A DNA stretch of 64,000 bases from NCBI GenBank assembly GCA_964019335.1, contig OZ025661.1, forward strand, positions 732,673-796,672. The letters run 5' to 3'. The position numbers and the translations under genes were made by a program. This DNA is from Diplonema japonicum (lineage: Eukaryota > Protista > Euglenozoa: Diplonemea). Shown in pieces: positions 26,152 to 57,194 of the stretch (position 1 is its first letter; every line of letters begins with the position of its first letter). The notes beneath the pieces are model-generated. The model was not told the DNA's origin, searched no databases, and saw only the letters and a list, made by a program, of their open reading frames with translations.

Positions 26152-26184
26152 AAGTATTTCCGTCTGCTGGACTACAGGAGGTCC

Positions 26185-26916
26185 TTGCCGGGGGGCAAGA
26201 CAAAGAGGAAGGCTACGGCGATAGAGTTCCGTAGGTTCTTCGGAAACAGTGTCTGGTGGGAACTGTGGTGTGCGGCTGGTGTCAGGGACAGGGACATAAA
26301 GCAGAAAGAGGAAGAGAAAAAGGAAAAGAGAAAGAAGGATAAGGAAGAAAAAAAGGCGACAGACGGAGAAAGCGGGGAGCAGCTGAAGGCGCTGATGGAG
26401 AGACTGGAGGTGATGGAGAGGAAACTAGCGGAGAAGGAAGAGAAGGGGGAGGAAGAGGAAATGATGTTGAGGCACCTGGAGTCAAGAATGGAGACCCAGG
26501 AAGAGGAGATGGGGAAGGTACAGGGTAAGGTGGAAGCGGTCGAAGGTCAGGTTGGTAACCTGGCACAAGCCATCGAGAGAATGGCGACAGTGCAGACGGA
26601 GCGGCTGGTGGCCATGGAGAGGAGGCTGACGGAGACTGGTGCGAGCCAGTATAATAAAATCCTCCTCCTCCTGACAACAGGAGGCAATAGGATGGAGGAA
26701 GAAGAAGAGTCAAGCCCCGAGCCACCACCGCACTGCCACGAGAGACCGGACGAATCTCAGTCCGGCATCGACTACTCACCCACCCAAACTGAACTCCCCT
26801 CCACACCTGTGAGAAAGGTGGGAAACGCGACCTCGCGCCAAGCCACCATGGCCACTACTCCCTCTCATTCAAACCCGTCAGCCCCCCTGAACGCCAAGAA
26901 GAAAGTCTCTCATTAA
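26185..26916 (+). CDS. Family A ORF1 (coiled-coil, probably 5'-truncated)
   Basis: Glu/Lys-rich coiled coil upstream of ORF2. The frame runs back to the insertion junction. Confidence 0.7.
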   Translation: MPGGKTKRKATAIEFRRFFGNSVWWELWCAAGVRDRDIKQKEEEKKEKRKKDKEEKKATDGESGEQLKALMERLEVMERKLAEKEEKGEEEEMMLRHLESRMETQEEEMGKVQGKVEAVEGQVGNLAQAIERMATVQTERLVAMERRLTETGASQYNKILLLLTTGGNRMEEEEESSPEPPPHCHERPDESQSGIDYSPTQTELPSTPVRKVGNATSRQATMATTPSHSNPSAPLNAKKKVSH

Positions 26917-27253
26917 CGAAAGACCTGATTTTAGCGAAGGTCAGAAAACTAAATAAAAAGATTAAAAAAAAAAGAAAGTGTCGCATCAACCAAAAGAACT
27001 TAAAAGAAAAGGGCAAAAAAAAGATTTTAAAAAAAAAAAAAGCCAAAGCCCAAGAAAGGGGAAAAAGAAAAGGCAACCCCACAAACAAAAGAGTGAACAA
27101 TAAACGAAGAGAACAAAACAACGGCGGAAAGCAAGGAAGAATAAAGCGAAGACGAGGACTACTTGGCTACAACACGCGGCTAAATCCTGGCCGGCCCCGA
27201 ACGGGGGTGTCCAAGCAAGACAAGGCGTTAGTGGCGGCGATGATAGGTCAGTT

Positions 27254-30200
27254 ATGGCCGGCCCCCCCCAAGTACGACCCTTCATCCGAAACCCGGGGTG
27301 CGGGGGTGACCAATACGGTAAGTCAAGCAAGAGCACGAACAGACGACGAGGAGGAACAGGACCACATGGAATGGATATCCTAAGCTGCGGAGACGTCGAG
27401 AGTAACCCCGGTCCTAACATGAAAATAAAGACTGATCAGCCACGCAACCCGAAGCTGAGAGTGTTGTCGGTGAATGCACACTCGGTGAGAGGGAAAATGG
27501 TGGAGCTCGAGAAAAGTATAGAAGAACTCGAGCTTGATGTGGTTATGATACAGGAATCATGGCTAAGAACCGAGGACGAAATCGAACTACCGGGCTTCAA
27601 CCTGTTCAGGAGAGACAGGGTGGTGCTAAACGAGGACGGGGAGGTGAAGAGGGGAGGTGGCCTGGTGACGGCGGTCAGGAGAGACCTGGATGCTGAGCAG
27701 ACGTTCATAGGAGAACGTGATGACAGGACGGAAAGACTGGACGTATCCGTACAACTCACCGAAACAAGAAAACTGCTCTTGGTCAACATCTACCGCCCCC
27801 CATCGTCCACTAAAGTCAAAGGCGACTTGGCAGTCTCCAATCTCCCTTCTGGTCAGGATGTGCTGATATCGGGTGATTTCAACGCGCACTCTGACATGTG
27901 GGACAGTACCGCCAAGAACAGTGACCTGAAGGGAGGTGAACTGGAGAAATGGATGGTCAGGACGAACATGCTGCCACTCAACAGACCAAAGTGCCCCACA
28001 CACTTCTCAACGAGAGGAACCTTCACCACGACCGACATAATGATAACGGACGCGGGGTATGACCCAGGCTCGTGGAGGGTACTGGACTCAATAGGTTCCG
28101 ACCACTTTCCCATGTTCTACGAATGGGAAGTGGGACAGCAACAAAAGGAAGGAAGGAAAAAACCGCCCCAGAAGCTGGTATGGGAAAAAGCTGACTGGGG
28201 CAAATTCAGGACTATCGTAGAAGAGAGGACATCATGCCTTCTAAAGAGCAAGGACGTGGAGGTGGTGAGTAAGGGACTCATCGACCTGCTCATGGCAGCT
28301 TCTAGGGAGAGCATACCTAGAAAAGGGCCGAAACCTGCTAAGGCGTGGTGGACTCCTGAGATAGACAGCAAGGTAAAGGAAAGGAACACCAAACTAAGGG
28401 AGTACGTAAGCAAGGGCGAGGACGATCCGGTTGCCTTAGCGGAGGTAAGGTTACTCCAGAAAGAGACAAGGGAGTTAATACAAGCCTCTAAACAAAAGAG
28501 GGACGAAGATTTCCTGGATGAACTGGGAAGGAAGAAAACGTCCAAAGACACTTTCGCTTTCATAAGGCAGCTTGACGGGAGTGCAACGAAACCCGGAGTC
28601 TCGGTTCTCAGGGAGAACGGTACAAGATACGCAAGTAACAAGGCGAAAGCAACAGCCTTGTGCGAACACTACGCAGCAAAATGTACACCGAAAATAGGAC
28701 AATCCTCTAGAGAAGCTCTGGAATCCCTAAAAAACGAGGTGAAGAGAGAGACCCAGCAAGAACAAGCAGAAGCAGTCACGACGAGTGAGGTGCTGGGCGA
28801 GATCGCGAAGCTAAAGAAACGAAAAGCCCCGGGACCCGACGGCATCTACAACGAATATCTCAAAAAAATGGGGCCAAAAGGAGTGGAAGTTCTGAAACAT
28901 CTCTTCAATCTCTCTTGGAAGGAAGGGAAGGTCCCGTCGGAGTGGAAGAGAACAACAATCAGACCACTCAGGAAACCCAACAAAGACCCGAGCAGAGCCG
29001 ACTCCTACAGGCCCATATCCCTGACGAGCAACATCGCGAAAGCCATGGAGAGGGTGGTGAGAAGCAGGATGGTCTACCTTCAAGAGACCAGGAAGGTAAC
29101 CCCACCACACTGGACACAATCCGGCTTCATGAGAGGCCGATCAACCACAGAGAACATACTCTTCGCTGCGAAAACTCTACAGGGTTTCAAATACAACAAC
29201 ACGGGGAAAAGGGGAGGTCTGCTCTTTCTGGACCTTAAGGGGGCCTTCGACACGGTGTGGCATGAGGGACTCATAGCAAAGATGGAGAATAACGGATATC
29301 CCGAAGAATACACAAGATGGGTAAAGAGCTACCTCAGCAAGAGAAAAGTGGCGGTGGAGGTGGAAGGCACGCAAGGGGTCTCCAGGGAGTTTAAGGGGGG
29401 AGTCCCTCAAGGAACTGTCCTGGCACCTCTACTCTTTACCATCTATGTGGATGACCTGACCAGAGTGCTAGAAGAACGAGGCATACGTGCTTGCACGTAT
29501 GCAGATGACATCATGGTCGTGGTCGAAGGCAAGAAGGACAAGGAGGTCGAGAAAAAGGCACAACTGATTGTTGACTTGGTGGAACAGTGGGCTGAGAGGT
29601 GGTCGATGCAGCTGGCACCCGAAAAATCGAACATCCTTTGCAACGGAGTCTCGAGGAAACTGAAGGTATCTTTCGGAGACGGGACAGGATTGAAACAGGT
29701 AGACAAGGCGAAGTACCTGGGGGTCACGCTAGACGCTAACGCGTCCTTCGAGGCTCACGTGGGTGAAGTCAAAAACAAGACGCGTAGGCGCTTGGGATAC
29801 TTGTACAGACTGTCCAGCAAGAAGGGTGGGTTGAGAAGGGACATGCTCAGAGCGATCTACCTAACGTACGTGTTCCCACTGACTAGATACGGCCTGGGGG
29901 TCTACGGCAAGTCGCTGCGGAAGGACCTTTTTGACGACCTGAACGAACTACATGAAACGGCGGCGAGATTTATCACAGGGCTCCCTGGGAAGATCTCCAA
30001 ACATATAGCAGTGGTAGAGGCAGGACTACAACAATTGGACACAGTAGTCAAGACGGACACCCTGCTGTTGTACGAGGAATGCATACGGAAGTCCAACACA
30101 GTGGGGTGTGTTGCTGCACTTGCTGAGGAGCTCGACGAGGACACCTGGGCAGGGAGGATGAGGAGGGATGCAAAGAACCTGGACCCTCCGCAGAGGGAAT

Positions 30201-31225
30201 GCACCCCGGTAGGCCCATCGCCCATTAAAGCAGACCACATGATCCCCCCCTGGCATGACCTGATGTTGGATCTGAGACCCTATCTGATCGAAGACAGCAG
30301 ACGCTCGGACCCGAAGGAAAAAAGGCTAGAAGTGGCGCTGAGGACGATCGCAGCACTCCCGAAGGATTCCATGAGGATTTACACCGACGGCTCCTCGCCC
30401 AACAACAGGAGAGGGGGAGCGGCAGCAGTGATGAGGGTGAGGGGAAAAGAGGAAGTGGTGAAGGGGTCTGCAGGTGAGTACTGCAGCTCTTTCAGAGCGG
30501 AAACCAAAGCATTGCTGCTGGGCTTGAGAGGTGCGGCAGTGGCGACGAAGAAAGTCATCCGGACGAAAAAGACCATCCCTTTAATACTGCTCACTGATTC
30601 TCAATCACTGATCCTGAGCCTACAAAAAGGCCCTCAGTCAGCAACCTACTGTGACGAGGTATTCATCTGGCAGCATATCAGGATACTGAATGACAGAAAT
30701 CTGTCGGTGACGATACAGTACATCCCTGCCCACGTAGGTGTCGAGGGCAACGAGAGAGCGGATGAGGCTGCTTCTAAGGCTGCTAAGGAACACACAACGG
30801 CTGGCACTCACTATTCTCTGACGGACTACAGAACAACAAAGTCCTACGTTAAGAGAATGATCTACAAAGAGTGGAGGGAACTGTGGGAGGACAGTGGGAA
30901 GGACAAGGCATACAGAGAACGTACTGGAGGCCGATTTCACTCTTTGAGAGGCCTGGCCTCGAGAAGGGGTGAGATACAGGTAATGAGGCTCCGTGCTGGC
31001 CAGTCCGAGCTCACCAGGGGATACCTGAGACGCGAAGGGGCGAGGGAGGTGGACGTGAAATGCACTTTCTGTGGAGAGGTGCAAAACCTCACGCATCTTC
31101 TGAGTGAGTGCAGGGGGACCGAGGTGGAGAGGGCGAGGCACCTGGGTTCGCACTCCATCACCGAACTCCTGACCGATGAATCCCCTAGAGTTGAGTCTTT
31201 CTTGAAAGAGATTGGCTTGCTGTAG
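27254..31225 (+). CDS. Family A ORF2: 2A peptide-APE-RT-RNase H-CCHC
   Basis: GDVESNPGP; SVNAHS, IQESW, GDFNAH, GSDH; PQGTVLAP, YADD; YTDGS, TDSQS, PAHVGVEGNERAD; CTFC..LTHLLSEC. Intact 1323 aa. Confidence 0.95.
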   Translation: MAGPPQVRPFIRNPGCGGDQYGKSSKSTNRRRGGTGPHGMDILSCGDVESNPGPNMKIKTDQPRNPKLRVLSVNAHSVRGKMVELEKSIEELELDVVMIQESWLRTEDEIELPGFNLFRRDRVVLNEDGEVKRGGGLVTAVRRDLDAEQTFIGERDDRTERLDVSVQLTETRKLLLVNIYRPPSSTKVKGDLAVSNLPSGQDVLISGDFNAHSDMWDSTAKNSDLKGGELEKWMVRTNMLPLNRPKCPTHFSTRGTFTTTDIMITDAGYDPGSWRVLDSIGSDHFPMFYEWEVGQQQKEGRKKPPQKLVWEKADWGKFRTIVEERTSCLLKSKDVEVVSKGLIDLLMAASRESIPRKGPKPAKAWWTPEIDSKVKERNTKLREYVSKGEDDPVALAEVRLLQKETRELIQASKQKRDEDFLDELGRKKTSKDTFAFIRQLDGSATKPGVSVLRENGTRYASNKAKATALCEHYAAKCTPKIGQSSREALESLKNEVKRETQQEQAEAVTTSEVLGEIAKLKKRKAPGPDGIYNEYLKKMGPKGVEVLKHLFNLSWKEGKVPSEWKRTTIRPLRKPNKDPSRADSYRPISLTSNIAKAMERVVRSRMVYLQETRKVTPPHWTQSGFMRGRSTTENILFAAKTLQGFKYNNTGKRGGLLFLDLKGAFDTVWHEGLIAKMENNGYPEEYTRWVKSYLSKRKVAVEVEGTQGVSREFKGGVPQGTVLAPLLFTIYVDDLTRVLEERGIRACTYADDIMVVVEGKKDKEVEKKAQLIVDLVEQWAERWSMQLAPEKSNILCNGVSRKLKVSFGDGTGLKQVDKAKYLGVTLDANASFEAHVGEVKNKTRRRLGYLYRLSSKKGGLRRDMLRAIYLTYVFPLTRYGLGVYGKSLRKDLFDDLNELHETAARFITGLPGKISKHIAVVEAGLQQLDTVVKTDTLLLYEECIRKSNTVGCVAALAEELDEDTWAGRMRRDAKNLDPPQRECTPVGPSPIKADHMIPPWHDLMLDLRPYLIEDSRRSDPKEKRLEVALRTIAALPKDSMRIYTDGSSPNNRRGGAAAVMRVRGKEEVVKGSAGEYCSSFRAETKALLLGLRGAAVATKKVIRTKKTIPLILLTDSQSLILSLQKGPQSATYCDEVFIWQHIRILNDRNLSVTIQYIPAHVGVEGNERADEAASKAAKEHTTAGTHYSLTDYRTTKSYVKRMIYKEWRELWEDSGKDKAYRERTGGRFHSLRGLASRRGEIQVMRLRAGQSELTRGYLRREGAREVDVKCTFCGEVQNLTHLLSECRGTEVERARHLGSHSITELLTDESPRVESFLKEIGLL

Positions 31226-32150: not shown

Positions 32151-34349
32151 ATGTCGACCTCCAACAAGAAGAAAAAGAGGCCCGCTCACCACAAGTCCAG
32201 GACGGAAGAAATCCTGGAGAAAGCCCGCGGTGAGCGGGTAAAGGACAACGCCGCCGCCAGGGCGAAGCGCACGCGCGAGGAGGTGGAGAGGAAGCGCGCA
32301 GAGGGGGTCACGCCGGTGGTGACACCCTCCCCCGGGCAAGGGAAGAAGGCGGCCAGAAGGGCCAGACAGAAGGCAGCAGCTGCTGACGCTGCCACCGCCG
32401 CCGCTTCGGGCTCCGACGACTCTGTCGTCTTAATTAGCGAGTCGCCGGGCGTTGTCACCTCGTTCACGGTCGACACGCCAGAGGTCAGGAGGGCGAGGAT
32501 GAGGACTGCTGCCGCCGACACCACTGCCACTGCTCCTGCACCTGCTGCTGCCGACTCCCCTGCTCCTGCACCTGCTGCTGCCGACACCACTGCTCCTGCG
32601 CCTGCTGCTGCCGACTCCCCTGCTCCTGCGCCTGCTCCAGCCTCTACTGCTGCCGTGTGGTCTACTGCCGTCCTCACTGCCGCTGCCTGCGACACCGCCC
32701 TCCCCATGTCGGACTCTGACACCGACGAGAAGGACACGGCCCCCGCTCCCGCACCGGCCCCGGAGCCTCACTGGGATCTGGTCCCCGACACGTGGGACGC
32801 CCCCATCTACACCAACACTGCTCCCCCTGAGGAGGTGCCCCGCGCCGTCGTCGCTCTCGACGACCTCCAGCAGGTGGACGCGATTCGCACTGCGAGGCCC
32901 ACGGCCTCCCTGACCTTCGTCCTCTTGACGGAGGTTGCCGGTTCGACCACCCCATGCACCGTCATCGTACTCGCCGGCCAGCGTGTCGTGCACAAGGCCG
33001 TGCACACCTTCTCGGTCGGGTCGAACCCCCCCTCCTACACCCCACTCGCTTCTTTTGATGGCGGCTCTGAGGTAGTGTACGTCAGCGTGAAAGCTGACAG
33101 CGTGAACGCGGCGAAGGCCAGGGTTCGGGACCTCGTCGCGACCCAGGGCGTGGCGGTGGAGGAGCAGGCGATCTTCCGCCCGAAGAAGATCGACGGGAAC
33201 GAGCCGCGGGCGCGGCACTGGAGCCACGAGGTGGGCCTGCGGCTCCCGGCGGCATCCGTCCATGCGGTACTCCGGGCCTCGGGCGACGGCTGCATGGTCA
33301 GGACGACCGAGCGGCGCGGGGGGTACACCTACGTGCCCATCGTAGCGGAGGGGAGGGCGGAGGCCTTCCAGCTGGCGAAGGCACTGGGCGGGTTGTCCCT
33401 GGGGGTGGCCCATCGCAAGGGTTGGACCGTGAGGTGCCTGCCGGAGACGGAGCAGCGTCTGAGGGAGGCCCTCGCCAAGCAGAGGACAAAGCGTCGGTAC
33501 CTGCTCACCGGAGCCCCGCTGTCTGTTACCAGGGCAGCCTTCGACGGGATGATGGACCACATCGGTTGGAAGCCGTCGTCCATCATCCGACGCTCTGACA
33601 CGGCGTTCCAGGGCACGAGGCAACTCGTGTTCTTCATCGTCGCCGACGCCCCGCCCCCCAAGGCCAGGACATGGCTCTTCGGCTCTCGTCTCGTTCGACT
33701 GCACGACGCGGAAGACCACCCGAGCGTCACGCTCCCGCCCCGCACCAACAAGAAGGCTCCACCCGCGGCTCGGACGCCGGTTGCGGCAACCACGGCCCAG
33801 ACGCCGACGCCGGCCCCTGGCCCCACGGTGCAGTCCACAGGGCTGCCGAGCACCAATCCGTGGTCATCTCCACCGAGCTCGGTTGCCCCTCCGCCACTTG
33901 GCACTGTGACTCCGGTCTCCTCTGCGGCTTCCCCGACCACGACACCTCCCCGTGACTCCCAGAAGAAGAATCCCGCACCGGAACCAGAGGTCCCGGCGCT
34001 CCTCGCGCTGATCCAGTCGATGCAGGCGACCATCGACGGTCTGCAGGCGACGGTCCGCGACCTCCAGGAGAGGATGGCAGCGTCACTTGGCGCGCCGGCG
34101 TCATCTGCAGACGGAGCTGGGCGGACGGCAGTGGCTGGGAAGGGCAAGGGCGGCAAGGCTGGGTCCAAGGCAGGGACGAAGGGGCACCAGGCGCAGGGCG
34201 TAAGCACGCCAGGCCCCTACCCGACATCGACGGAGCAAGGGGGCGGAAGGGGACGCGCCCAGTCGCTGGCTGGCGACTCTGCTTCCCCCAACGGGGCCGG
34301 CCGTGGACGGGCAGCCTCTGTGGGCCCGGCCCCCGCCCCTGCCAATTGA
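32151..34349 (+). CDS. Family B1 ORF1
   Basis: ATG at 32151. Basic N-terminus, Ala/Pro tandem repeats (32505-32650), and a C-terminal half homologous to 46086-46913 (FQGTRQLVFFIV, RTWL, DHP). Confidence 0.85.
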   Translation: MSTSNKKKKRPAHHKSRTEEILEKARGERVKDNAAARAKRTREEVERKRAEGVTPVVTPSPGQGKKAARRARQKAAAADAATAAASGSDDSVVLISESPGVVTSFTVDTPEVRRARMRTAAADTTATAPAPAAADSPAPAPAAADTTAPAPAAADSPAPAPAPASTAAVWSTAVLTAAACDTALPMSDSDTDEKDTAPAPAPAPEPHWDLVPDTWDAPIYTNTAPPEEVPRAVVALDDLQQVDAIRTARPTASLTFVLLTEVAGSTTPCTVIVLAGQRVVHKAVHTFSVGSNPPSYTPLASFDGGSEVVYVSVKADSVNAAKARVRDLVATQGVAVEEQAIFRPKKIDGNEPRARHWSHEVGLRLPAASVHAVLRASGDGCMVRTTERRGGYTYVPIVAEGRAEAFQLAKALGGLSLGVAHRKGWTVRCLPETEQRLREALAKQRTKRRYLLTGAPLSVTRAAFDGMMDHIGWKPSSIIRRSDTAFQGTRQLVFFIVADAPPPKARTWLFGSRLVRLHDAEDHPSVTLPPRTNKKAPPAARTPVAATTAQTPTPAPGPTVQSTGLPSTNPWSSPPSSVAPPPLGTVTPVSSAASPTTTPPRDSQKKNPAPEPEVPALLALIQSMQATIDGLQATVRDLQERMAASLGAPASSADGAGRTAVAGKGKGGKAGSKAGTKGHQAQGVSTPGPYPTSTEQGGGRGRAQSLAGDSASPNGAGRGRAASVGPAPAPAN

Positions 34350-37300
34350 AGGGGTCCCGCTGAGCAGGGGGGGCGTCAGATCGACGACCACGCCCCCTCT
34401 CCTGGTCTCCCGCGCATACAGCCGAGGAGACACCTTCCACATCACTTGTACGACGTCCTCCCTTCCTTGATCCCTTCCTTACTTGAACGGATGTCGGCCA
34501 GGGACCTGCTGGGGCTGCTTGGGCTGGTTGAGACGAACCCCGGTCCACCTAAGAAGCTCCCACCCCCGAAGCCGAAGGGACTCAGGGTCCTGTCCTGGAA
34601 CTGCAACGGTCTTGCCGCCAAGTGGTCAACCGTGTCCTACCACGCTGTCCTACTGACGCTGGATATCATTATGATCCAGGAGACACACCTTAGGGAGGGG
34701 CATGAGACACCATACCTGCCTGGATACACGTCCTACAGGAGGGACCGCACAACACCGGTGACGGACGGCTCTGCGACGAGAGGCGGTGGTGTCATCACGT
34801 ATGTCCGTGACTGCCTTGCCTCGGAGGAAGCTCCTTTCGTACTCCCTGAAGGTGACAGTGTCACTGAGCGATTAGACGTGAGGATCTCCTGTGTGAAGCG
34901 CGTCCCGGTCACCCTCTCCAACGTGTACCTCACGCCTGTGAGTATAAGCAGAGGAACAAGGGACCCCGAGTACCTACGGCCGGGCAGCCTACCTGTGGGG
35001 AAGAACACGATCGTTGCTGGCGACTTCAACGCACACCACAGCTCTTGGGATGCCAAGGTGACAACGCCCAACGAAAGGGGGAACGTGGTCAGGGACTGGC
35101 TTGACACCCACGGCTACACCGTCTACAACAACCGAGACGAGCCGACGCGGGACTCACCGCCACGCGTTCTGGACCTGGTGGTGGGACGTTGTGCGGAACT
35201 GGAGCCGAGGACGTTGGGGACGTGGGGCTCTGATCACAGCCCGGTTTCCTTCCGCCTGCCGCTTGAGGACGCCTACTGCTCGGAGCGACCCTGCCCTACC
35301 TGGAACTTCAAAAAGGCCAGGTGGGACGACTTCACCGCGGCCGCCGCTGCCCTTCTGACCAAGATCGACACGAAGGCCCACATTGACTCCTTCACGAAGG
35401 AGGTTACAGAGGCTCTTCTGCATGCAGCTGACGACCACATTCCGCTTTGCGGAGTGCGACGAGGCCCGACCCCCTGGTGGACGGCCGAACTCGAAGACGC
35501 CTTCGAAGAACGGAACGCCCTGCGGGATCGCTTCCTCAAGTCGGCTGAGACTGAGGACGACAGCGTGGCGGCGGTCTACAAGGCGAAGGTCAAGGAGGTA
35601 AACCAACTCATGACCGAGTCGAAGCGCGCGGCCTGGGGTGAGATGGCGGCTGACCTCAGTCGGAGCAAGGACCTCGGGTCTGCGTTTAGGGCGGTGAAGA
35701 AGCTGGACGGCAGACACCGCAGACCGCACCTTCCCATTCTCGAGGGGAGGTTCGTGACGGACAAGGCGAAAGCCGACCGCCTGGGGGCTCACTTCGGCAA
35801 GCTCTACGGCCAGGGTGGTGATGGGGACGCGGTGGACGTAGCTCCTTCGACGAACGTGCTTGGGTGCCACGCCTTTACGGTGTATGATCTCACCCGCGGT
35901 CTGGGAAGGATGAAGACACGCAGTGCAGCGGGTGATGATGGCATCTTCGCGGAGATGCTTCTCCACCTCGACCAACCCTCGCTCGGGGTTCTACTTCTGC
36001 TCCTCAATCGCTCATGGCAGGCGGGGATCGTGCCGGGTGCCTGGAAGAAGGGGGTGATTGTTCCAGTGGCGAAGGCAGGGAAGGACGCCACGTTGCTTGC
36101 ATCGTACCGTCCCATATGTCTCACTAGCTGTCTTTGTAAGCTGCTTGAGAGGATGATAGAGGAGAGGCTTACCTTTCTCCTAGACTCTAGCGCGTCGGGC
36201 GTTGAGGGTCTCCACGACAGCCAGGCTGGCTTCAGGAGGGGCCGCTCCACGGAGGAGCAGGTGGCGTCCCTGACCGGGTGCCTGTCGAGGAACAAAGACA
36301 GTCGGCGTCTGTCGGCTGCCCTGCTGTTTGACTTCTCATCTGCGTTTGACCTGGTTCAGCACGAAGCTCTCTTGGGCATGATGCGGAGGAAAGGGATCCC
36401 TGAGCCCTTCGTCGAATGGACGCGCTCCTTCCTCTGCGGTCGTACGGCGGCGGTCACGGTGGGTCGTTCGCGAGGGTCGACGACGAAGGTGAGGAGAGGG
36501 GTGCCCCAAGGGTCTGTGCTGGGACCCGTCCTTTACACCATCTACGTCGACGAGCTAGCCAGGTTGCTGGTTGGGATGGCGGACCTGTCGGTTCTTTATG
36601 CCGACGATGTTGCGGTGGTGGTCTCAGCCGGGCAGGGCGACCTGGCTGGTCTTGAGCGAGGGGCCCAGGCTGTGATGGACGCGGTTGAGGGCTGGTGTGG
36701 GAGACGGGGCATGCTGCTGAGCTCCAGCAAGTCGCAGGCAGTGTGCGTTCCCTATCAGAAGCGGCTTAATGTCTACTTCTCTTCGTCGCGTGTCCCGCTT
36801 TGCCCGGGGGCCTTCCAGGACCCTGTCCTTAATCTTGGGGTTGGGGTCTGTGGGACCTTGTCTGGCGTCCGTGAGCTGTCTGGCTTTCGGGTCGTGGAGG
36901 CGGGTGGCAAACGGTCCTTCGACATTCCCGCCGCCATCCGGAGGTCCGACATTGGTTACATGGCGGCTCGCCCCTTGCCTCTATGTGGGTCGGCGAAGTA
37001 TCTTGGGGTCACTGTAGACTCTGGGCTCACGTTTGACGAGCATGCGGGGGATGTCCTGAGGAGCGCTGACAAGAGGCTGAGGGTACTAAGGCTCCTGTCG
37101 GGCACGACCTGGGGGTGCAAGAAGGCCACGCTCCGATCTCTGTACCTCACGTACGTTCTCCCGCTACTCCGGTACTGCATGGGTGTTTACTTTGCCAGGC
37201 TCAGGGACAGCAGGGTGGAGGAGCTTGTTGGGCTCCACCAGAGAGCGGCGGTGCTGATCTCGGGTTGTTGGCACGGCTCGGGCACGGCGAAGGTTGTTGC

Positions 37301-38657
37301 TGAGGCAGGTCTGCTACCCCTCCGACAGATGGCTGAGGGAGCTGCGGCGGTGTTGACGGCGAAGTCGTTCTGCTGGAGGACCTCCCCGGTTCACCGCGAG
37401 GTCCTTGAGCAGAAGCGGATGACCGGTATGGGCAATGGGTGGCTGCGTGCGGGTATCCTTGCGCTACGACGCTGCGGACTGCAGGGGTGGACGACGCAGG
37501 AAGGCTTCAGGAAGTACGACACCTTCGAGCTACTGACTGCCTCGCCCAAAGTAGCACCGTGGCACGCGTTCCTGGTGGAGTTCAGAACTGCCCTTCCCGG
37601 CAGGGTCACGCGTTCGTCGCCGGACGTGGATAAGCGGAAGGCGGCCGTGGAGGCTCTGGCTGCCCTTCCACCGGGTATCCATGCCTATACGGATGGTTCT
37701 GTCGTACGGGACCGCCAGAGGTGGAGGGGCGGCGCCGGGGTCTACTTGCAGCTCCCCCGCCCCCACGAACCCGTGTCCGAGAGCTTCGGCGTCAGCAATT
37801 TCTGCTCTTCCTTTCGGGCGGAGGGTCTGGCTGTCAAGGTGGCTCTGGACATGGTGGCCGCGCTCCGGAGCGAGCACCCCACGTTGGCAGACAGCCGGCT
37901 GTCGATCTGTACCGACTCGCTCTCTCTCCTTGATCAGCTGAGGGCAGGTCCTTCGCGGCAGAGGGAGAGGCTCGACCACGAGACCTGGGAACTGCTGGTG
38001 GCCGCGGCACGTGCACAAGGTGCACCAGTCATTCTCCAGTTTGTGCCGTCCCACTGCGGGGTTCCTGGCAACGAGGCGGCAGACAGGCTGGCCGGGGAGG
38101 GCACGAAGCGCGAGCTGACTCGCCCCTCTCTCGACTACAGGTCGGTCAGGGCCCTGGTCCGTCGCCAGATTCAGCAGAGGTCTGCGGTCATTGTCGGGGA
38201 GGTGGCCCCGAGGTACGCGAGGGCCACGGGGCTCCGAGCGGCGTGCTTCCCCCAGTCCCTCCCCAGGCTAGCGGAGACGGTCATCTCGCGGCTGAGGGTA
38301 GGGCACTCCGCTCTCTTCTTCGGCTTCCTGCAGGCGGCTGGACCGAACAGGAAGAAGGCTGAGCTCAGCTGCCCAGCGTGTGGAGCAAAGATGTCCAGGG
38401 AGCACGTTGTTGGGGGGTGCGCTGTGGTTGGACGGGGTTCGCTCGACGCTCCCAATGGACGCCCCTCGCTGGTGGAGTGCCTGTCAAAACGCGTGACGCA
38501 GGTATTCACCCTCATCGCCGACTCTGGCTTGCTTGACTGGGCCAGATCCGGGGTCTTCACGTCGCCGTCTGCGGCAACGGCAGGTACCGCTGCCCCTTCG
38601 TTCATCCCGCCGGCTGTCTCCCTTGACGCCGGCCCTGCGGCCCCCGTGTTGCGCTGA
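34350..38657 (+). CDS. Family B1 ORF2: 2A-like-APE-RT-RNase H-CCHC (in frame with ORF1; first ATG at 34491)
   Basis: LVETNPGP; SWNCNG, IQETH, GDFNAHH, GSDH; PQGSVLGP, YADD; YTDGS, TDSLS, PSHCGVPGNEAAD; CPAC..SREHVVGGC. Confidence 0.95.
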   Translation, partial: RGPAEQGGRQIDDHAPSPGLPRIQPRRHLPHHLYDVLPSLIPSLLERMSARDLLGLLGLVETNPGPPKKLPPPKPKGLRVLSWNCNGLAAKWSTVSYHAVLLTLDIIMIQETHLREGHETPYLPGYTSYRRDRTTPVTDGSATRGGGVITYVRDCLASEEAPFVLPEGDSVTERLDVRISCVKRVPVTLSNVYLTPVSISRGTRDPEYLRPGSLPVGKNTIVAGDFNAHHSSWDAKVTTPNERGNVVRDWLDTHGYTVYNNRDEPTRDSPPRVLDLVVGRCAELEPRTLGTWGSDHSPVSFRLPLEDAYCSERPCPTWNFKKARWDDFTAAAAALLTKIDTKAHIDSFTKEVTEALLHAADDHIPLCGVRRGPTPWWTAELEDAFEERNALRDRFLKSAETEDDSVAAVYKAKVKEVNQLMTESKRAAWGEMAADLSRSKDLGSAFRAVKKLDGRHRRPHLPILEGRFVTDKAKADRLGAHFGKLYGQGGDGDAVDVAPSTNVLGCHAFTVYDLTRGLGRMKTRSAAGDDGIFAEMLLHLDQPSLGVLLLLLNRSWQAGIVPGAWKKGVIVPVAKAGKDATLLASYRPICLTSCLCKLLERMIEERLTFLLDSSASGVEGLHDSQAGFRRGRSTEEQVASLTGCLSRNKDSRRLSAALLFDFSSAFDLVQHEALLGMMRRKGIPEPFVEWTRSFLCGRTAAVTVGRSRGSTTKVRRGVPQGSVLGPVLYTIYVDELARLLVGMADLSVLYADDVAVVVSAGQGDLAGLERGAQAVMDAVEGWCGRRGMLLSSSKSQAVCVPYQKRLNVYFSSSRVPLCPGAFQDPVLNLGVGVCGTLSGVRELSGFRVVEAGGKRSFDIPAAIRRSDIGYMAARPLPLCGSAKYLGVTVDSGLTFDEHAGDVLRSADKRLRVLRLLSGTTWGCKKATLRSLYLTYVLPLLRYCMGVYFARLRDSRVEELVGLHQRAAVLISGCWHGSGTAKVVAEAGLLPLRQMAEGAAAVLTAKSFCWRTSPVHREVLEQKRMTGMGNGWLRAGILALRRCGLQGWTTQEGFRKYDTFELLTASPKVAPWHAFLVEFRTALPGRVTRSSPDVDKRKAAVEALAALPPGIHAYTDGSVVRDRQRWRGGAGVYLQLPRPHEPVSESFGVSNFCSSFRAEGLAVKVALDMVAALRSEHPTLADSRLSICTDSLSLLDQLRAGPSRQRERLDHETWELLVAAARAQGAPVILQFVPSHCGVPGNEAADRLAGEGTKRELTRPSLDYRSVRALVRRQIQQRSAVIVGEVAPRYARATGLRAACFPQSLPRLAETVISRLRVGHSALFFGFLQAAGPNRKKAELSCPACGAKMSREHVVGGCAVVGRGSLDAPNGRPSLVECLSKRVTQVFTLIADSGLLDWARSGVFTSPSAATAGTAAPSFIPPAVSLDAGPAAPVLR

Positions 38658-39397: not shown

Positions 39398-39518
39398 GGG
39401 GTCGAATACACACACACACATGAAAATGTAAGCCCGACCCGAGTGTGTGTGGTGGCTGCTCACCTCCCAGTGGTGGCCCTGGGCAACGTGCACGCAAGGT
39501 GCACGGCCAAGAGGCAGC
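39398..39518 (+). ncRNA. HDV-like self-cleaving ribozyme 1
   Basis: P1 GGGGUC/GGCCCU (G.U at +1), P2 GCUGCUC/GAGGCAGC, P3 ACC/GGU, L3 UCCCAGU, J1/4 GG-GCAAC, P4 GUGCAC/GUGCAC, J4/2 GGCCAA (catalytic C at 39507). Confidence 0.8.
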
Positions 39519-39629
39519 TTCCCTCTTGTTGTGTGGGGTGAGTCGTGTGGTGACGCTGGACCCCTGGCCGAGCAAAACGAGGGGGGTGGCTGGAGCGAAG
39601 ACGGTCTGTTTGGCACAAGCCGCTATTAA

Positions 39630-39754
39630 GGGGTCCGATTACACACACACATGAACATGTAGACGAACGCGGTGTGTGTGGTGGCTGCCCACCTCCACGG
39701 TGGTGGTCCCTGGGCAACGCGCAGGTGGTGAAGGTTGCGCGGCTGAGAGGCAGC
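39630..39754 (+). ncRNA. HDV-like self-cleaving ribozyme 2
   Basis: P1 GGGGUCC/GGUCCCU (one U-U), P2 GCUGCCC/GAGGCAGC, P3 ACC/GGU, L3 UCCACGGU, GG-GCAAC, P4 GCGCA/UGCGC, J4/2 GGCUGA (C at 39743). Confidence 0.78.
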
Positions 39755-40967
39755 TCGAGAGGAGGAGCAGGGGAACGGTGTTGCGTTGGGCGGCCGAGGG
39801 CCGGAGCCGGAGCGCCGTGTTGGATGGCATCCCCTGGGGAAGCCTCCTGCACGCCAGAACGAGGACCGGATCCGGAGACGCCGTTTGATGGTTTTCCTGG
39901 GGAAGCTGACCTGAACGCCCGAGCGAAGTGGCCTGAGCGTGGGGAGCACTGTTTGCCGACAGAAAACAAGATTAATGCAAAATGTCCAGAGTGCGCAACA
40001 GTGTTTTCCACGTGAGGGGTTCGATTTCAAAGTGGGTCCTCCAGCCACCAGAGTTGTAGGCTGGGTTCCCGCGGAGAGAGAATCGGAGCGGAGGCGTCAA
40101 GTACGGTGGACCACCTCAAGGGATGTAAGTCCATTGTGTGACACAGTCTCTCGGTGAAGGTCCGACTTCTGGTGGGTAGGCAGGCAGAACCGTATAGGGG
40201 TGTAAGGAACACCATTGTGTGACCTGTCGCACACGGGGAAAGCCCAAGGCCGGTGGGTTATCTGCCAACGTGTCCCCCTCCTCTACTTCGCCTCTCACAA
40301 CCTCTTCCTCCCCGCTGACGATTGACTCCACAGCACTCGCCGGCCTACCTGGTGCGCCCGCGTCATTACGCGATAGGGAGTCTCGTTGGAAAAACATCTT
40401 TCGCAGCTGAGAAGGGGGGTTTTTTTTTTTAGAAATAGTAACCAGTAATTCTTTTTTCCCCCTCCCCCATTGGTTTCCCTTTCTTTTTATTTTCCCTACC
40501 AGGCTCCTTTTCTAGTTATGCATTCCTCCCTTCTTTGTGGAAGTTGAGTTCTGAACTTGACTTTTCCTTTTACATTTCCTTTTTCAAATTTATATTTTAG
40601 GCTCCCACAGCCCAACAAAACCAGCAGATGGTGGGGTCCCTGTGGCTGGATAAATCAAAATTAGGGATCTCATCGCCGTCCTTTAATATTTGGGGTTGTC
40701 TTTATTTGGTGACAGCCGAAGCCTTCGAGGCCCAAGAGCTGCGTGGCGGGGGAATGGGGAAAAATAAGAAAGGTGGATGTCGGGGGCCCAGGAAAATATA
40801 CAAGAGGTCGAGCAAACGAGCAAGAGGTCCCCCCCGATATGGCTCAGTAAGAGAGACTGTTTTAACCTTCCCTTCCCAATTTTTATGGTTTCAACTTTCT
40901 CCGCCCCCCATCCCCCCCCCGCCTGGTAGTGGAATAATTATTATTATTATTAAAAGTATTTCCGAAG

Positions 40968-41792: not shown

Positions 41793-44700
41793 TTAGCGCA
41801 GCACGGGGGCCGCGGGACCGGCGTCAAGAGAGACCGGAGGAGGGGGCGGCACGTTTGAAGGTGCAGTGACGTCTGTAGACGCCAGGGATGATGGCGAGGT
41901 GAACAGTCCGGAGCGTGACCAGGCGAGCAGGCCAGACTCAACAACGAGGTCGTAGATCTGGGTCACGCGTCTCGACAGGGAGAAGGCTAGGGAGGGAGTA
42001 CCAGCAGGAGTGTCGATCGCCCCCCTCCCGATCACAGGGCACCCACCGACAACATGCTCCCTGGACATCGGTGCTGCGTGGCAGGCTGGGCACCGGAGCA
42101 CACCCTTGTGCTTCCTGTTCGGGCCAGCAGTCTGCAGGAAGCCGAAGAAGAGAGCCGAGTGACCAATCCGCAGCCGCGAGATGACCGTTTCAGCTTGTCT
42201 GGGGAAGCCAAGGGGGAAGTGCGCAGACCGAAGCTCGGTCGCCACCGCGTAGTTGTGGGCGAGGGATGTTATGAGCTCCGCGGACCTCCGCACCACCCAC
42301 CGTCGCACCAGGGCCCTCACTGATCGGTAGTCAAGGGAGGGCCTGTCCTGCTTCCGCTTCGTTCCCTCCACGGCCAGAGCGTCAGCCTTCTCGTTCCCGT
42401 CCACCCCACAGTGGGAGGGCACAAACTGGAGGACCACCGGTGTCCCCTGCGTGCGCGCCGCGGACACCAGCCGGCTCCACGTCTGGTGGTCGAGCTTCTC
42501 CCTCTGTCGCGTTGGGCCAGCTCGCAGCTGCTCGACGAGGGAGAGGGAGTCGGTGCAGATCGACAGCGGGGACTTCGCCAGCGAAGGGTGTGTTTTTCGG
42601 AGGGTAGCCACCATATCCAGCGCCGTTTTCACAGCCATGCCCTCTGCCCGAAAAGATGAACAGAAGTCGTTGACGCCATGGCACACAGACACAGGGGTCA
42701 GGGGGGGAGGCAGCTGCAGATAAACCCCAGAGCCACCTTTCGCCTTCTGTCCGACCTGTACAACCGAGCCATCCGTGTAGGCATGGATGCCCGGGGGGAG
42801 AGCCGCAAGAGCAGCCTCGGCCGCCTTCCGCCTGTCCGCGTCTGGCGACGATCGCGTGACCCCGCCGGGGAGGTCAGTCCTGAAGTCGACCATGCCTGTC
42901 TGCCACGGGGCCGCCAGGGGCGTAGCCGACAGGTACTCGAAGTGCACCTTTGGTTCCAACCCGCATCGACGCAGTGCTTGGTAGCCAGAGCGCAGCCACC
43001 CACACCCCAGCCTGTTCGCCTGCTTCAGCTTGACCGTCTCCCTGTGAACCGGGGAAGACTGCCAGCAGAAGGCCTTCGCCGTCATCGTCGCCGCAGCACC
43101 CTCCGCCATTCTTTCGAGGGGAAGCAGTCCTGCCTCAGCTAGGAGCTTGTACCCTCCGGAGCCACTCCAGCAGCCCGTGATCAGCACCGCCGCCTCCTGG
43201 TGAAGCCCAGCCAGGTCCTTCCTCCCGACATCATCGAGCCTGCTGTAGTAGACCCCCATGCAGTAGCGCAGCAGCGGGAGGATGTACGTAACGTAGAGAG
43301 ACCGCAGAGTGTCCCTCTTGCTGCCCCAGGACGTGCCGGACAAGAGCTTCAGCACCCTCAGCCTTTTGCTGGCCCGCCGTAGGATGTCCTGTGCGTGTTC
43401 ACCGAACGTGAGCCCAGAGTCCACCGTAACCCCAAGGTACCTCGCGTGTTCAGATAGAGGCAGGGGACGGGCCGCAACGTAATCCACGTCGGGCCGTCGC
43501 ACGGCTGCATGCATGTCCCGCACGCAGCGGATCCGCACACCACCCGCCTCCACAACCTGAAGGCCCGCCAGCTCCTGGTCCCCGGAGATCGTGCCATCGG
43601 CGTTCACCCCCAGGCCGAAGAGTGGGTTCTGGAAGGCACCTGGCTGAAGGGGGACTCGTGACGAAGTGAAGTAGACCCCGAGACGTTTCTGGGGGGGGAC
43701 GCAGACTGCCTGCGTCTTGGACGTGCTCAGCAGCATGTCACGCTCCCTGCACCAGTCCTCAACCGCATCCACCACCGCCTGCGCCTTCCGCTCCAGCCCA
43801 GCCACGTCCCCTTGTCCAGAGGAGATCACAACCGCCACGTCGTCGGCGTAGAGCACCGAGACGTCCGCCAGTCCCTCCAGTCTCCTGGCGAGTTCGTCGA
43901 CGTAGATGGTGTACAGGATGGGACCCAAGACAGAGCCCTGGGGGACACCCCGTCGCACCTTCGTCGTCGACCCCCTCGACCGTCCAATCGTGACCGCAGC
44001 AGTACGGCCGCATAGAAAGGACCGCGTCCACTCCACGAAGGGTTCGGGGAGACCCTTCCCTCGCATCTTGTCCAGCAGGGCACCATGGGGCACCAGGTCG
44101 AAGGCAGAAGAGAAGTCGAACAGCAGAGCGGCCGAGAGACGTCGATCGTCTTTGTTCCTCGACATGCACTCAGTGAGGGTTGCCACCTGCTCCTCCGTGG
44201 AGCGGCCGCGTCTGAAACCAGCCTGGCTGTCGTGGAGTCCCTCGACTCCCGTCCCGTCCGCGTCAAGAAGAAACGTGAGCCTCTCCTCGATCATCCTCTC
44301 CAGCAGCTTGCAGAGGCAGCTGGTCAGGCAGATCGGCCGGTAGGAAGCCAAGAGAGTCGCATCTTTTCCAGGTTTCGGTACCGGGACGATCACTCCCTTC
44401 TTCCAGGCACCGGGGACGACACCCATCAGCCAGGAGCGATTGAGGAGTAGAAGGAGGACACTGAGGGAGTCCGTGTTCAGGTGTAGGAGCATCTCCGAGA
44501 AGATTCCGTCTTCCCCGGCCGCGCTGCGCGTCTTCATCCTTCTCAGGCCGCGGGTGAGGTCGTCCACGGTGAAGGCTTGACACCCGAGTCTGCTTGCAGA
44601 AGGAGCGGCGTCCTTCGAGTTCCCGTCACCACGCCTGCCGTAGAGCTTAGCGAAGTGCGCCCCCAGCCGGTCGGCCTTCGCCTTGTCCGACACAAATCTT

Positions 44701-46085
44701 CCCTCGAGTACAGGAAGGTGTGTCTTTCGGTGCCTGCCGTCCAGCTTCTTCACCGCTCTGAACGCAGCCCCGAGGTCCTTGCTCCGGCTGAGGTCGGCCG
44801 CCATCCTTCCCCATGCCTCACGCTTCGTCTCGTCAAGGAGTCGGTTGACTTCCTTCACCTTCGCCCTGTACTCCTCCACCACCACGTCCGCCTCTTGAAG
44901 CAGGAGTTCGCGCAGGGTGTTCCGCTCTTCGAAGGCGTCCTCGAGCTCAGCAGTCCACCAGGGGGTCGGGCCACGTCGCATCCCACAGAGGGGAATGTGG
45001 TCGTTCGCCGCAGTCAAAAGGGCTTGTGTAAACCCCTTCGTGACAGAGTCAATCGGAGCCGCCGTGTCAACACCAGCAAGCAGGCGGGCAACAGCAGCAG
45101 TGTAGTCATCCCATCTGGCTTTTTTGAAATTCCAGGTGGGGAAGGGGCGCTCCGAACGGTAGACGTCCTCAAGAGGCAGGTGAAAGGATACGGGACTATG
45201 ATCGGAGCCCCACGTGCCCAGCGTCTTCGGCTCAAGCTTCGCGCAGCGCCCCACAACCAGGTCCAGAACGTGTCGTGACGAGTCCCTCGTCGGTTCGTTG
45301 CGGTCGTTGTAGACGGAGTACCCGTGGGTGTCCAGCCAGTCCCTGACCACGTTCCCCCTCTCGTTCGGCGTCGTCACCGTGGCGTCCCAGGAGCTGTGGT
45401 GAGCATTGAAGTCACCCGCTATGACTGTGTTCTTCCCCATGGGAAGGCTGCCAGGCCGCAGGTACTCAGGGTCCCTCGTGCCTCTGCTCGCGCTTACCGG
45501 TGTAAGGTAAACGTTGGAGAGAGTGATCGGCTCACGCTTCTCGCAGGAGATCCTCACATCCAGTCTCTCAGTGACACAGTCCCCAGCCGGGAGTACGTGC
45601 GGAACCTCCTCCGAGGCAAGATCGTCGCGGACATACGTGACAATACCACCACCCCTCGTCGCAGTGCCGTCAGTCACCGGTGTCAACCGATCCCTCCTGT
45701 ATGACCTGTACCCAGGCAGGTGTGGCGTGTCGTGCCCTTCCCTCAGGTGCGTCTCCTGTATCATGATGATGTCCAGCGACAAGAAGTCAGCATGGCGAGA
45801 TACGACGGTCCATTTCGCAACGAGGCCGTTGCAGTTCCACGAGACAACCTTGAGACCCTTAGGCGACGGGGGCGGCAGCTTCTTGGGTGGGCCAGGGTTT
45901 GTTTCGACCAGCCCAAGCAGCCCCAACAGGTCCCTGACGGACATCCTCCCGAGTAGGGTGGGGATCAGTGCAGAGAAGTCGGTGAAGAAACAGAGAGGTA
46001 GGAGTCTCCTTGGGAGGATGCGAGGGAGACTAGGAGAGGGAGCATGGTCGTGGATCTGCTGCTCCCCCTGTTCTGCGGGGCCCCT
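41793..46085 (-). CDS. Family B2 ORF2: 2A-like-APE-RT-RNase H-CCHC (first ATG at 45944; frame open back to the ORF1 UGA)
   Basis: Same motifs as B1; 1383 aa from the ATG. Confidence 0.95.
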   Translation of the reverse strand, partial: RGPAEQGEQQIHDHAPSPSLPRILPRRLLPLCFFTDFSALIPTLLGRMSVRDLLGLLGLVETNPGPPKKLPPPSPKGLKVVSWNCNGLVAKWTVVSRHADFLSLDIIMIQETHLREGHDTPHLPGYRSYRRDRLTPVTDGTATRGGGIVTYVRDDLASEEVPHVLPAGDCVTERLDVRISCEKREPITLSNVYLTPVSASRGTRDPEYLRPGSLPMGKNTVIAGDFNAHHSSWDATVTTPNERGNVVRDWLDTHGYSVYNDRNEPTRDSSRHVLDLVVGRCAKLEPKTLGTWGSDHSPVSFHLPLEDVYRSERPFPTWNFKKARWDDYTAAVARLLAGVDTAAPIDSVTKGFTQALLTAANDHIPLCGMRRGPTPWWTAELEDAFEERNTLRELLLQEADVVVEEYRAKVKEVNRLLDETKREAWGRMAADLSRSKDLGAAFRAVKKLDGRHRKTHLPVLEGRFVSDKAKADRLGAHFAKLYGRRGDGNSKDAAPSASRLGCQAFTVDDLTRGLRRMKTRSAAGEDGIFSEMLLHLNTDSLSVLLLLLNRSWLMGVVPGAWKKGVIVPVPKPGKDATLLASYRPICLTSCLCKLLERMIEERLTFLLDADGTGVEGLHDSQAGFRRGRSTEEQVATLTECMSRNKDDRRLSAALLFDFSSAFDLVPHGALLDKMRGKGLPEPFVEWTRSFLCGRTAAVTIGRSRGSTTKVRRGVPQGSVLGPILYTIYVDELARRLEGLADVSVLYADDVAVVISSGQGDVAGLERKAQAVVDAVEDWCRERDMLLSTSKTQAVCVPPQKRLGVYFTSSRVPLQPGAFQNPLFGLGVNADGTISGDQELAGLQVVEAGGVRIRCVRDMHAAVRRPDVDYVAARPLPLSEHARYLGVTVDSGLTFGEHAQDILRRASKRLRVLKLLSGTSWGSKRDTLRSLYVTYILPLLRYCMGVYYSRLDDVGRKDLAGLHQEAAVLITGCWSGSGGYKLLAEAGLLPLERMAEGAAATMTAKAFCWQSSPVHRETVKLKQANRLGCGWLRSGYQALRRCGLEPKVHFEYLSATPLAAPWQTGMVDFRTDLPGGVTRSSPDADRRKAAEAALAALPPGIHAYTDGSVVQVGQKAKGGSGVYLQLPPPLTPVSVCHGVNDFCSSFRAEGMAVKTALDMVATLRKTHPSLAKSPLSICTDSLSLVEQLRAGPTRQREKLDHQTWSRLVSAARTQGTPVVLQFVPSHCGVDGNEKADALAVEGTKRKQDRPSLDYRSVRALVRRWVVRRSAELITSLAHNYAVATELRSAHFPLGFPRQAETVISRLRIGHSALFFGFLQTAGPNRKHKGVLRCPACHAAPMSREHVVGGCPVIGRGAIDTPAGTPSLAFSLSRRVTQIYDLVVESGLLAWSRSGLFTSPSSLASTDVTAPSNVPPPPPVSLDAGPAAPVLR

Positions 46086-46913
46086 TCAATTGGATGGACC
46101 CATGGAGGCAGAGCGCCCCTTGACCCCATTGGTGAAGAGATCTTTGGTCTCCGCGAACGACCTGGCCCGCCCCCTCGTACCCAGGTTCGTCACCGCAGCC
46201 TCAGAGGTCGTAGCGAGAGGAGGAGCCCCCTTCTTCCCCTTCCCCTTCCCTTTCCAGACACTGTCGTGTGTCGTCGTCACCCCCGGTGTAGGGTCCCGCG
46301 GCACTGCCGTTCCCGTCGTCAGCGTGGCCGCCTGCGGCAGGAGGAGGCGGAGCGTCGTCCGCAGATCGGAGATCATCTCCTGCTGAGAGTCGATCGTCCT
46401 CTGCAGCCCGACGATCGACTCCTTCAGCGTGGCGACGAGCTCAGTGAGAGCGGCGACCTCAGGCGACCCGGAAGGGACCCCCTCCTTGTTTCCCGCAGAC
46501 ACGTTGCGGGGCGGTGTAGGGGACGTCACAGTGTCGAGCTGGGGGGGAGCCACCGAGCTCGGTATGGACGCCCACGGGCTGGTGGGAGGAAGCCCAGTTG
46601 CTTTCACCGCAGGGCCAGTCTCCGAGGGTGTCGACGCCGATACAGGTGCCGGGTCAGGTACAGGTGTAGGCGCAGGTGCAGGTACATGAGAAGATGTGGG
46701 TGCCGGGGTCGAGGACGTTGCAAGCGCAGGTGCAGATGCAGGTGTCGTCCTGTTGATGAGAGGGGGCGGCTTGACGGTCGGGTGGTCGTCCGCATCACGG
46801 AGGCAGACAAGGCGCCCCCCAAGGAGCCACGTCCTGGACTTCGGGGGCGGGCTGTCGACGACGATGAAGAACACGAGTTGCCTCGTGCCCTGGAACATCG
46901 TCTGCGTGCGCCG
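46086..46913 (-). CDS. Family B2 ORF1, C-terminal part
   Basis: Homologous to B1 ORF1 (RR..T.FQGTRQLVFFIV..PPPK.RTWL). Ends AAT TGA. Confidence 0.8.
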   Translation of the reverse strand, partial: RRTQTMFQGTRQLVFFIVVDSPPPKSRTWLLGGRLVCLRDADDHPTVKPPPLINRTTPASAPALATSSTPAPTSSHVPAPAPTPVPDPAPVSASTPSETGPAVKATGLPPTSPWASIPSSVAPPQLDTVTSPTPPRNVSAGNKEGVPSGSPEVAALTELVATLKESIVGLQRTIDSQQEMISDLRTTLRLLLPQAATLTTGTAVPRDPTPGVTTTHDSVWKGKGKGKKGAPPLATTSEAAVTNLGTRGRARSFAETKDLFTNGVKGRSASMGPSN

Positions 46914-46927
46914 CCTGCAAGATTTTT

Positions 46928-56795: not shown

Positions 56796-57145
56796 ATTAA
56801 ATAAAAAAAATTAAAATAGCAAAAAGACTTTCATTCTTCTCCCCCCCCCCCATTTTTTGCCAACAACAAAGCCTAATCGAGGAACGCATTATTACCGCAG
56901 ACTCTGTTGACTGTATTTTTATTTTATTCTTCTCGAAACTTTGAGGAAAAAAAAAAAAAAAAAAGAAAAAGAAGAAAAAAAAAAAAAAAAAAGCAAACAC
57001 AACATAACAACCGCAAACAACAACAAAACTTCTCCCACTGAGGTTCGATTAATCCCCCCTCCAAGTCCGCGTGCACCCCCCTTTTTTTTGTCTTCCGCAA
57101 ACCCAAAAAAAAAAAAAAAAAAAAAAAAAAAAGAAGAAGGGAGGG

Positions 57146-57192
<47 letters not shown>

Positions 57193-57194
57193 CC

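Follow-up and report, generated by a model that had tools for sequence, protein, structure and literature searches.

Element B, an ingi-like LINE of Diplonema japonicum, keeps a 2A-like peptide with Leu at the consensus Asp position behind the in-frame UGA of its first ORF, where the peptide may act as the second of two brakes, a stem-aided minority readthrough of the UGA being followed by a leaky, Leu-bearing 2A. We give this reading a probability of roughly 0.45. The window (the whole stretch of DNA analyzed, 64 kb) contains three APE-RT-RNase H frames, A (27104-31225), B1 (34350-38657), and B2 (46085-41793). B1 and B2 share 75% nucleotide identity from 34342 onward, with a dS of 0.93 across ORF2, and all cassette comparisons rest on these two independent copies. 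Besides APE-RT-RNase H, the B elements have a poly(A) tail and a target duplication. From its Met, the B2 ORF2 matches a D. japonicum transcript protein at 1378 of 1383 residues, the next relatives being from D. ambulator. ORF1 is present and transcribed, with sizes of 732 to 951 aa, and a search for its relatives spanning proteins of 402 to 1281 aa gave one match. The B1 ORF1 core likely comprises RRM-type folds in tandem, with a coiled-coil-like stretch toward the C terminus, a weakly supported fold (low-confidence structure model, pLDDT 52; RRM and ACT matches with E values of 5e-4 to 1e-2; atlas 0.79-0.82). The features are as follows.

27389..27415, forward strand: canonical GDVESNPGP of element A, a third, distant APE-RT-RNase H element that provides an in-genome control
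32151..34349, forward strand: B1 ORF1, 732 aa, with low-complexity ends and a conserved core; 59% identity to transcript-derived P0009
34347..34349, forward strand: ORF1 stop TGA, in frame with ORF2, context CCAAT-TGA-AGGGG common to both copies; P0009 terminates at the identical codon
34349..34368, forward strand: predicted 5' arm of a long-range stem, pairing with 34505-34520
34350..34490, forward strand: spacer of 47 codons under coding selection, no indel, no stop; 30 of 47 residues identical between B1 and B2, dN/dS 0.22
34369..34397, forward strand: predicted hairpin in which two pairs changed in a compensatory way; its pair probabilities are 0.84-0.99 in B1 and B2 alike
34491..34547, forward strand: 2A-like 19-mer M1-P19, with atypical Gly8, Leu10, and Leu12; AUG common to both copies is position 1
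34505..34520, forward strand: predicted 3' arm of the long-range stem, inside 2A codons D5-L10; one compensatory pair (34364 with 34509) in which both substitutions are synonymous
34521..34546, forward strand: predicted hairpin, G11-L12 codons pairing with P17-G18-P19 codons (34521-27 with 34540-46)
34548..38657, forward strand: B1 ORF2 body by domain matches, with APE (about 34590-35237), RT (36096-36782), and RNase H (37680-38105)
41793..45887, reverse strand: B2 ORF2 body (APE-RT-RNase H by domain matches), terminating in TAA
45888..46088, reverse strand: second copy of the cassette, in B2, with TGA 46088-86, spacer, AUG 45944, and GLVETNPGP 45914-45888
46089..46914, reverse strand: B2 ORF1, 5'-truncated

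Both copies encode MS(A/V)RDLLGLLGLVETNPGP just upstream of the endonuclease; the ORF1 TGA lies in the same frame, about 66 codons farther upstream. An earlier note on this DNA had described a variant 2A, GLVETNPGP, directly before APE in both copies, with Leu in place of the consensus Asp, and we confirmed both points. The motif lies at 34521-34547 (+) in B1 and at 45914-45888 (-) in B2, in each case 11 residues before the LRVLSW/LKVVSW strand opening the APE domain; the Pfam Exo_endo_phos match starts at residue 81 of the stop-to-stop frame. NPGP occurs only three times in the six frames of the window, once per element and each time just before APE, and the pattern [VI]ExNPGP had a chance expectation of 0.005 in the six-frame window and did not appear in 30 Markov simulations. 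Homology to 2A peptides was further backed by a profile of 53 related 19-mers, which gave 25.7 bits to B1, 25.2 to B2, and 34.7 to element A, the next best of 75,619 window 19-mers scoring 0.0 bits; positions 4 to 11 of B scored 3.5 bits, between the 10th and 25th percentile of the relatives. Compared with class A 2A peptides such as F2A and P2A (PMC12846837), 11 of the 19 B residues match F2A in register (D5, L6, L7, L9, G11, V13, E14, N16, P17, G18, and P19), which includes the DLLxL cluster and VExNPGP, so the Leu-rich upstream segment (L6, L7, L9) and the Gly at position 11 are both present. B differs by Gly8, by Leu10, and, within the core (D/G/C/N)(V/I)ExNPGP, by its Leu at position 12, which also lies outside the rare T and V; the remaining constrained positions match. 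Between the copies, M1-P19 is identical at 18 of 19 residues (dN/dS 0.04), and GLVETNPGP accumulated five synonymous and no replacement changes. The same 18/19 identity is reached by 155 of 1404 ORF2 windows, most of the others lying inside enzyme domains, and the 17 codons adjoining the 2A upstream are identical at only 6. V13, E14, and T15 are unchanged as residues though the predicted RNA is unpaired there, and third bases vary over V13-E14-T15-N16. From its sequence, the motif is a 2A-derived peptide under purifying selection. Directly after it, PKKLPPP(K/S)PKG (34548-34580) is identical at 10 of 11 residues between the copies; as a matter of speculation, a longer pause might result from the Pro-Pro behind the skip site, and the basic stretch might be a nuclear signal.

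To place Leu12 among related peptides, 270 proteins were fetched and 6 B-family or duplicate rows were removed; 190 of the remaining 264 matched the APE pattern. A 2A-like motif upstream of APE was present in 63 of these, giving 62 distinct peptides and 53 full 19-mers. Position 12 of the 62 distinct peptides was D in 56, G in 3, N in 2, C in 1, and L in none; Gly8 and Leu10 were absent from the 53 19-mers and are thus as unusual as Leu12. A quick, midpoint-drawn RT tree of 49 of the 171 RT-bearing rows, with no named ingi or L1Tc sequence among them, grouped B as the sister (SH-aLRT 95) of D. ambulator elements whose motif reads GDVHKNPGP, and further D. ambulator relatives read GDVHRHPGP and GDVHPNPGP. 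Since none of the 62 peptides has Leu, the sister elements read GDVHKNPGP, and element A keeps GDVESNPGP, Leu12 is probably a derived state. LLG-LLG-LV is encoded by an imperfect 9-nt tandem repeat, which is a possible mutational route to Leu12. A metagenome scan reduced 278 pattern matches to four loci, all distant APE relatives at 28-29%. The diplonemid relatives P0002, P0011, and P0273 (D. ambulator) and P0012 (Flectonema) have His in place of the Glu, as DVHK, DVHR-H, DVHP, and DIHP, and His14 occurs in 14 of the 62 peptides overall; P0002 also has a duplicated 2A-plus-partial-APE unit. The 2A core of element A itself is canonical; its position 5 is Met, an open stretch of 100 codons rich in Lys and Arg lies upstream, and the upstream ORF of the element (26152-26916) sits in a different frame.

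Readthrough upstream of the 2A, as proposed in the earlier note, gained indirect support from coding selection on the spacer and from a predicted, possibly conserved RNA structure after the stop. The context CCAAT-TGA-AGGGG is kept in both copies even though ORF1 can hardly be aligned toward its end, and the spacer that follows has the same length in B1 and B2. Its dN/dS of 0.22 (Fisher p 5.6e-5) is specific to the ORF2 frame, the other frames giving 1.18 and 1.33, and falls to 0.15 in the first 30 codons (p 3.5e-4). In these 30 codons, third positions account for 12 of 18 changes (p 0.004), or 8 of 12 at unpaired sites (p 0.019); over the whole spacer this bias is modest (19 of 40, p 0.044; p 0.10 at unpaired sites only), and an open spacer frame by itself has a chance of 0.31. 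The stop is present in mRNA, given that the transcript-derived ORF1 terminates at the identical codon, and ORF1 and ORF2 come from one Trinity gene. The arrangement is thus a conserved in-frame stop, present in mRNA and followed by coding-constrained sequence, as in programmed readthrough. UGA-AGG, found in both copies, is outside the listed UGA readthrough contexts (UGACUA, UGACGG). Because frame-specific coding selection suggests that the spacer is translated, UGA readthrough into ORF2 is likely. Stop-codon reassignment was rejected, as TGA terminates the B1 ORF2 and two of seven host ORFs, the B2 ORF2 ending in TAA; an assembly error at the ORF1 stop was rejected on the evidence of the transcript.

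The predicted RNA links the region after the stop to the 2A codons. The RNAalifold consensus is a 172-nt multibranch stem of 44 pairs (3 compensatory, 4 one-sided, 0 broken), in which codons R4 to L12, the last being CTG (34524-26) in both copies, are all paired, with the nucleotides that directly follow the TGA and with the codons of PGP. Among 41 ORF2 windows, this one ranked first in consensus energy and in conservation index (0.82, the next being 0.73). A codon-aware null, in which synonymous resampling kept both proteins, gave a z of -3.18 (0/300) for this segment, which was picked after inspection, and -1.89 to +1.18 for 20 control windows. A pair-shuffle control with the two sequences was not significant (72/500), single-sequence folds were no better than shuffles (z of -0.27 and -0.61), and the pair probability of helix 2 was 0.6-0.8 in B1 and 0.01 in B2. 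The best supported long-range helix (34353-58) would sit inside the ribosome during stop decoding, where 11-12 nt are covered. With an Asp codon at position 12, the predicted energy of the small hairpin would rise from about -10.5 kcal/mol to somewhere between -3.6 and -8.5 kcal/mol, making it less stable. The earlier note had suggested that the D-to-L change tunes the fraction of fused product. Such tuning is possible, but because codons R4 to L12 are predicted to pair, RNA structure may instead explain Leu12, Gly8, and Leu10; we infer that these residues were fixed since their codons serve the RNA stem, weaker skipping being the price or a by-product. Neither the spacer nor the 2A codons had descriptor or Rfam support for an HDV-like ribozyme, which was therefore rejected, and Rfam DUF3800-XI matches over both motifs (E 0.07 and 0.31, below gathering) reflect only the G11-P19 hairpin.

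Published data bear directly on what a Leu12 2A can do. In the F2A structure, D12 hydrogen-bonds G3636 of 28S rRNA and the D12A variant is inactive (Li et al. 2026, PMC12846837); position 12 tolerates D, G, C, N, and, in rare cases, T or V, Leu not being among the enriched variants in the accessible part of that report. In the available portion of a saturation mutagenesis study, no D12 substitution got to the activity threshold of 0.6 in P2A or F2A, and 139 of 1,969 natural single-change peptides were highly active (bioRxiv 2026.09.24.754024). One tested natural GLVExNPGP, GLVEANPGP, was classed as "falloff only, reduced protein," with the upstream product released, a class that is a classifier call for a 20-mer in human cells; three other Leu12 peptides shown in the accessible part of the same source, without Gly11, were non-skipping (Snell and Matreyek 2026). 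Many of the LINE 2As assayed are described as inactive or weak, and those of L1Tc/ingi-type LINEs include natural core variants with reduced activity (PMC3708506). From these data, weak skipping is predicted for the B 2A. The efficient release of a free Pro-starting ORF2p put forward in the earlier note is consequently doubtful, and efficient skipping appears quite improbable; the balance is somewhat in favor of a measurable action on the ribosome, be it skipping or fall-off. Leu12 also occurs in viral ORFs, in at least 8 of 2,465 rows of Dataset S1A (PMC12846837), as seen from 16 of the 40 possible L-octamers, with three in one contig. IMG/VR contig L020 has two in-frame LVEKNPGP copies, and L008 (720-745) and L010 (1501-1526) are identical at 13 of 19 positions at the motif, their ORFs being otherwise barely alignable and the only other match standing at 27%; relatives of L010 were looked for and not found. 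These three small IMG/VR contigs are candidates for a Leu12/Lys15 2A subclass. A viral pattern scan gave six loci, of which L005 and L006, in contigs of 24-50 kb, may be due to chance, and L007 reads Phe.

Under the two-brake reading, most ribosomes would terminate at the UGA and produce ORF1p, and a minority, delayed by the predicted stem, would read through and translate about 65 residues. These would meet a 2A with an intact helix and NPGP but without the Asp anchor, leading to a pause and partial separation of ORF2p. At the Gly-Pro site, the outcome would be a free Pro-starting ORF2p (1370 aa, 149 kDa), fall-off leaving ORF1p with a tail of about 66 residues (83 kDa), or an ORF1-ORF2 fusion of 2168 aa. 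The net effect would be a double throttle that keeps ORF2p scarce, which fits the down-regulation proposed for the L1Tc 2A (PMC3708506). The stronger version, where the RT of a retrotransposon is made via readthrough and then StopGo, with one 50-nt stretch serving as both stem-closing RNA and working Leu12 2A, is tentative and on the doubtful side.

Two other explanations, which we consider about equally unlikely, each dispense with one of the two signals. ORF2 could start at AUG 34491, by structure-aided termination-reinitiation in the style of SART1 and L1 or from its own trans-spliced mRNA, leaving one recoding signal and an ordinary N-terminal LINE 2A. The in-frame AUG common to both copies is indeed position 1 of the 2A, and AGs at 34425 and 34428, also common to both, are compatible with trans-splicing. 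However, the coding selection acting on the first 30 spacer codons lies upstream of the AUG and of both AGs, the -3 base of the AUG differs between copies (C and A), and the stop is 141 nt from the AUG, a distance of the kind that lowers SART1 reinitiation. Alternatively, readthrough could be real and the 2A inert on the ribosome, so that an ORF1-ORF2 fusion would be the product and the motif would persist as linker and RNA stem. The three positions absent from relatives, the intolerance of D12 to mutagenesis, the complete pairing of the R4-L12 codons, and the poor record of LINE 2As in assays all speak for an inert 2A. Against it, the V13-E14-T15-N16 residues are unchanged in an unpaired stretch with varying third bases, the L6/L7/L9/G11 register is intact, and a plain linker would have no need of ETNPGP.

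Other ways of using the same sequence are far less probable. The Leu codon might be a CUG start made by the D-to-L change, at which ribosomes that stop at the UGA and shunt over the stem would reinitiate (34524). This CTG has G at -3 and +4 in both copies and lies 4 nt beyond the 3' base of the predicted stem, but a CUG start leaves the coding selection on the spacer and M1-G11 unexplained, the codon is paired in the predicted hairpin, and we found no supporting case; we regard it as very improbable. Slightly less probable still is that the peptide made from the AUG is a dual 2A/signal sequence or that selenocysteine is inserted at the UGA. Peptides that serve as both 2A and signal sequence are known (PMC4981915), and Leu12 extends the hydrophobic run LLGLLGLV (mean hydropathy 2.8); this run nonetheless has only 8 residues, two of them Gly, and secretion of an RT makes little sense. 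As for selenocysteine, a simple SECIS pattern scan gave nothing in either 3' UTR.

With L1Tc/ingi and other APE-type LINEs (Odon et al. 2013, PMC3708506), B shares a 2A directly before APE, an APE-RT-RNase H ORF, and, for L1Tc and ingi, a euglenozoan host. It differs from them by its Leu at position 12 and by an ORF1 in frame through the UGA; the accessible part of that report describes no readthrough, and ingi-clade elements, like most 2A-bearing LINEs, are without ORF1 there. For that reason, B is called ingi-like and is not filed as an ingi member; at the B1 5' end and in the spacer, the 77-nt ingi 5' promoter/ribozyme signature gave no descriptor or Rfam match. Alphavirus opal readthrough (PMC13517186) similarly places a UGA between a non-catalytic ORF and a polymerase, with a coding-embedded stem of about 170 nt. 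The extended stem of Sindbis starts at +16 and spans 177 nt, and helix 2 of B is predicted at +17 within a span of 172 nt. In contrast to alphaviruses, where a protease later separates the polymerase, B is a cellular retrotransposon that would use a 2A; its context is UGA-AGG and its structure is predicted from two copies. Elements of Cordylochernes also have a 2A between ORF1-like and ORF2-like domains (Snell and Matreyek 2026), yet within one protein, with no stop or readthrough mentioned in the accessible portion of that source, whereas B has an intervening UGA. As in SART1 and L1 termination-reinitiation, B presumably has a bicistronic LINE mRNA with structure downstream of the ORF1 stop, but its spacer is open and under coding selection, and there is no overlapping stop-start. 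In the openly accessible full-text literature searched, there was no report of element B or of LINE readthrough stacked on a 2A. A 2A before APE was thus already known, and the readthrough-plus-2A stack and the overlap of stem and 2A codons, not found in that literature, appear new here.

How LINEs synthesize ORF2p from a bicistronic mRNA is unsettled, the known routes being reinitiation and, in ORF1-less elements, N-terminal 2As. If true, readthrough into a 2A would add to these routes to ORF2p and could represent a step between elements with two ORFs and those with a single ORF and a 2A. Were the Leu12 2A to work, it would put to the test the cryo-EM model that requires D12 to contact 28S rRNA, for which the canonical 2A of element A is a control from the same genome; an RNA stem written in 2A codons would clearly exemplify constraint at the RNA level on a 2A sequence.

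Several other features of the window were observed. Two 80%-identical repeats outside B1 (39398-39519 and 39630-39755) have an HDV-like ribozyme layout; they match Rfam RF02682 at 25.9 bits, below the gathering score of 44, and the loose descriptor also matches about 15 other sites. A host gene (57042-59552) joins a GPCR-like membrane region to a PIP5 kinase. The retroelements are stacked just 5' of tRNA genes (25503-49160). At element junctions, the 11-mer that occurs 5' of tRNA-Tyr (40968) is repeated at 25503, 26152, 32114, and 40954, and a 13-mer directly 5' of tRNA-Cys recurs at 41351, 46915, and 49148. This arrangement suggests tRNA-targeted insertion and recalls the TRE elements of Dictyostelium. 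A 287-bp repeat, 97% identical at 40668-40952 and 49165-49446, is inverted around the tRNA cluster and B2 and ends in ATT repeats; it is possibly a SINE-like element.
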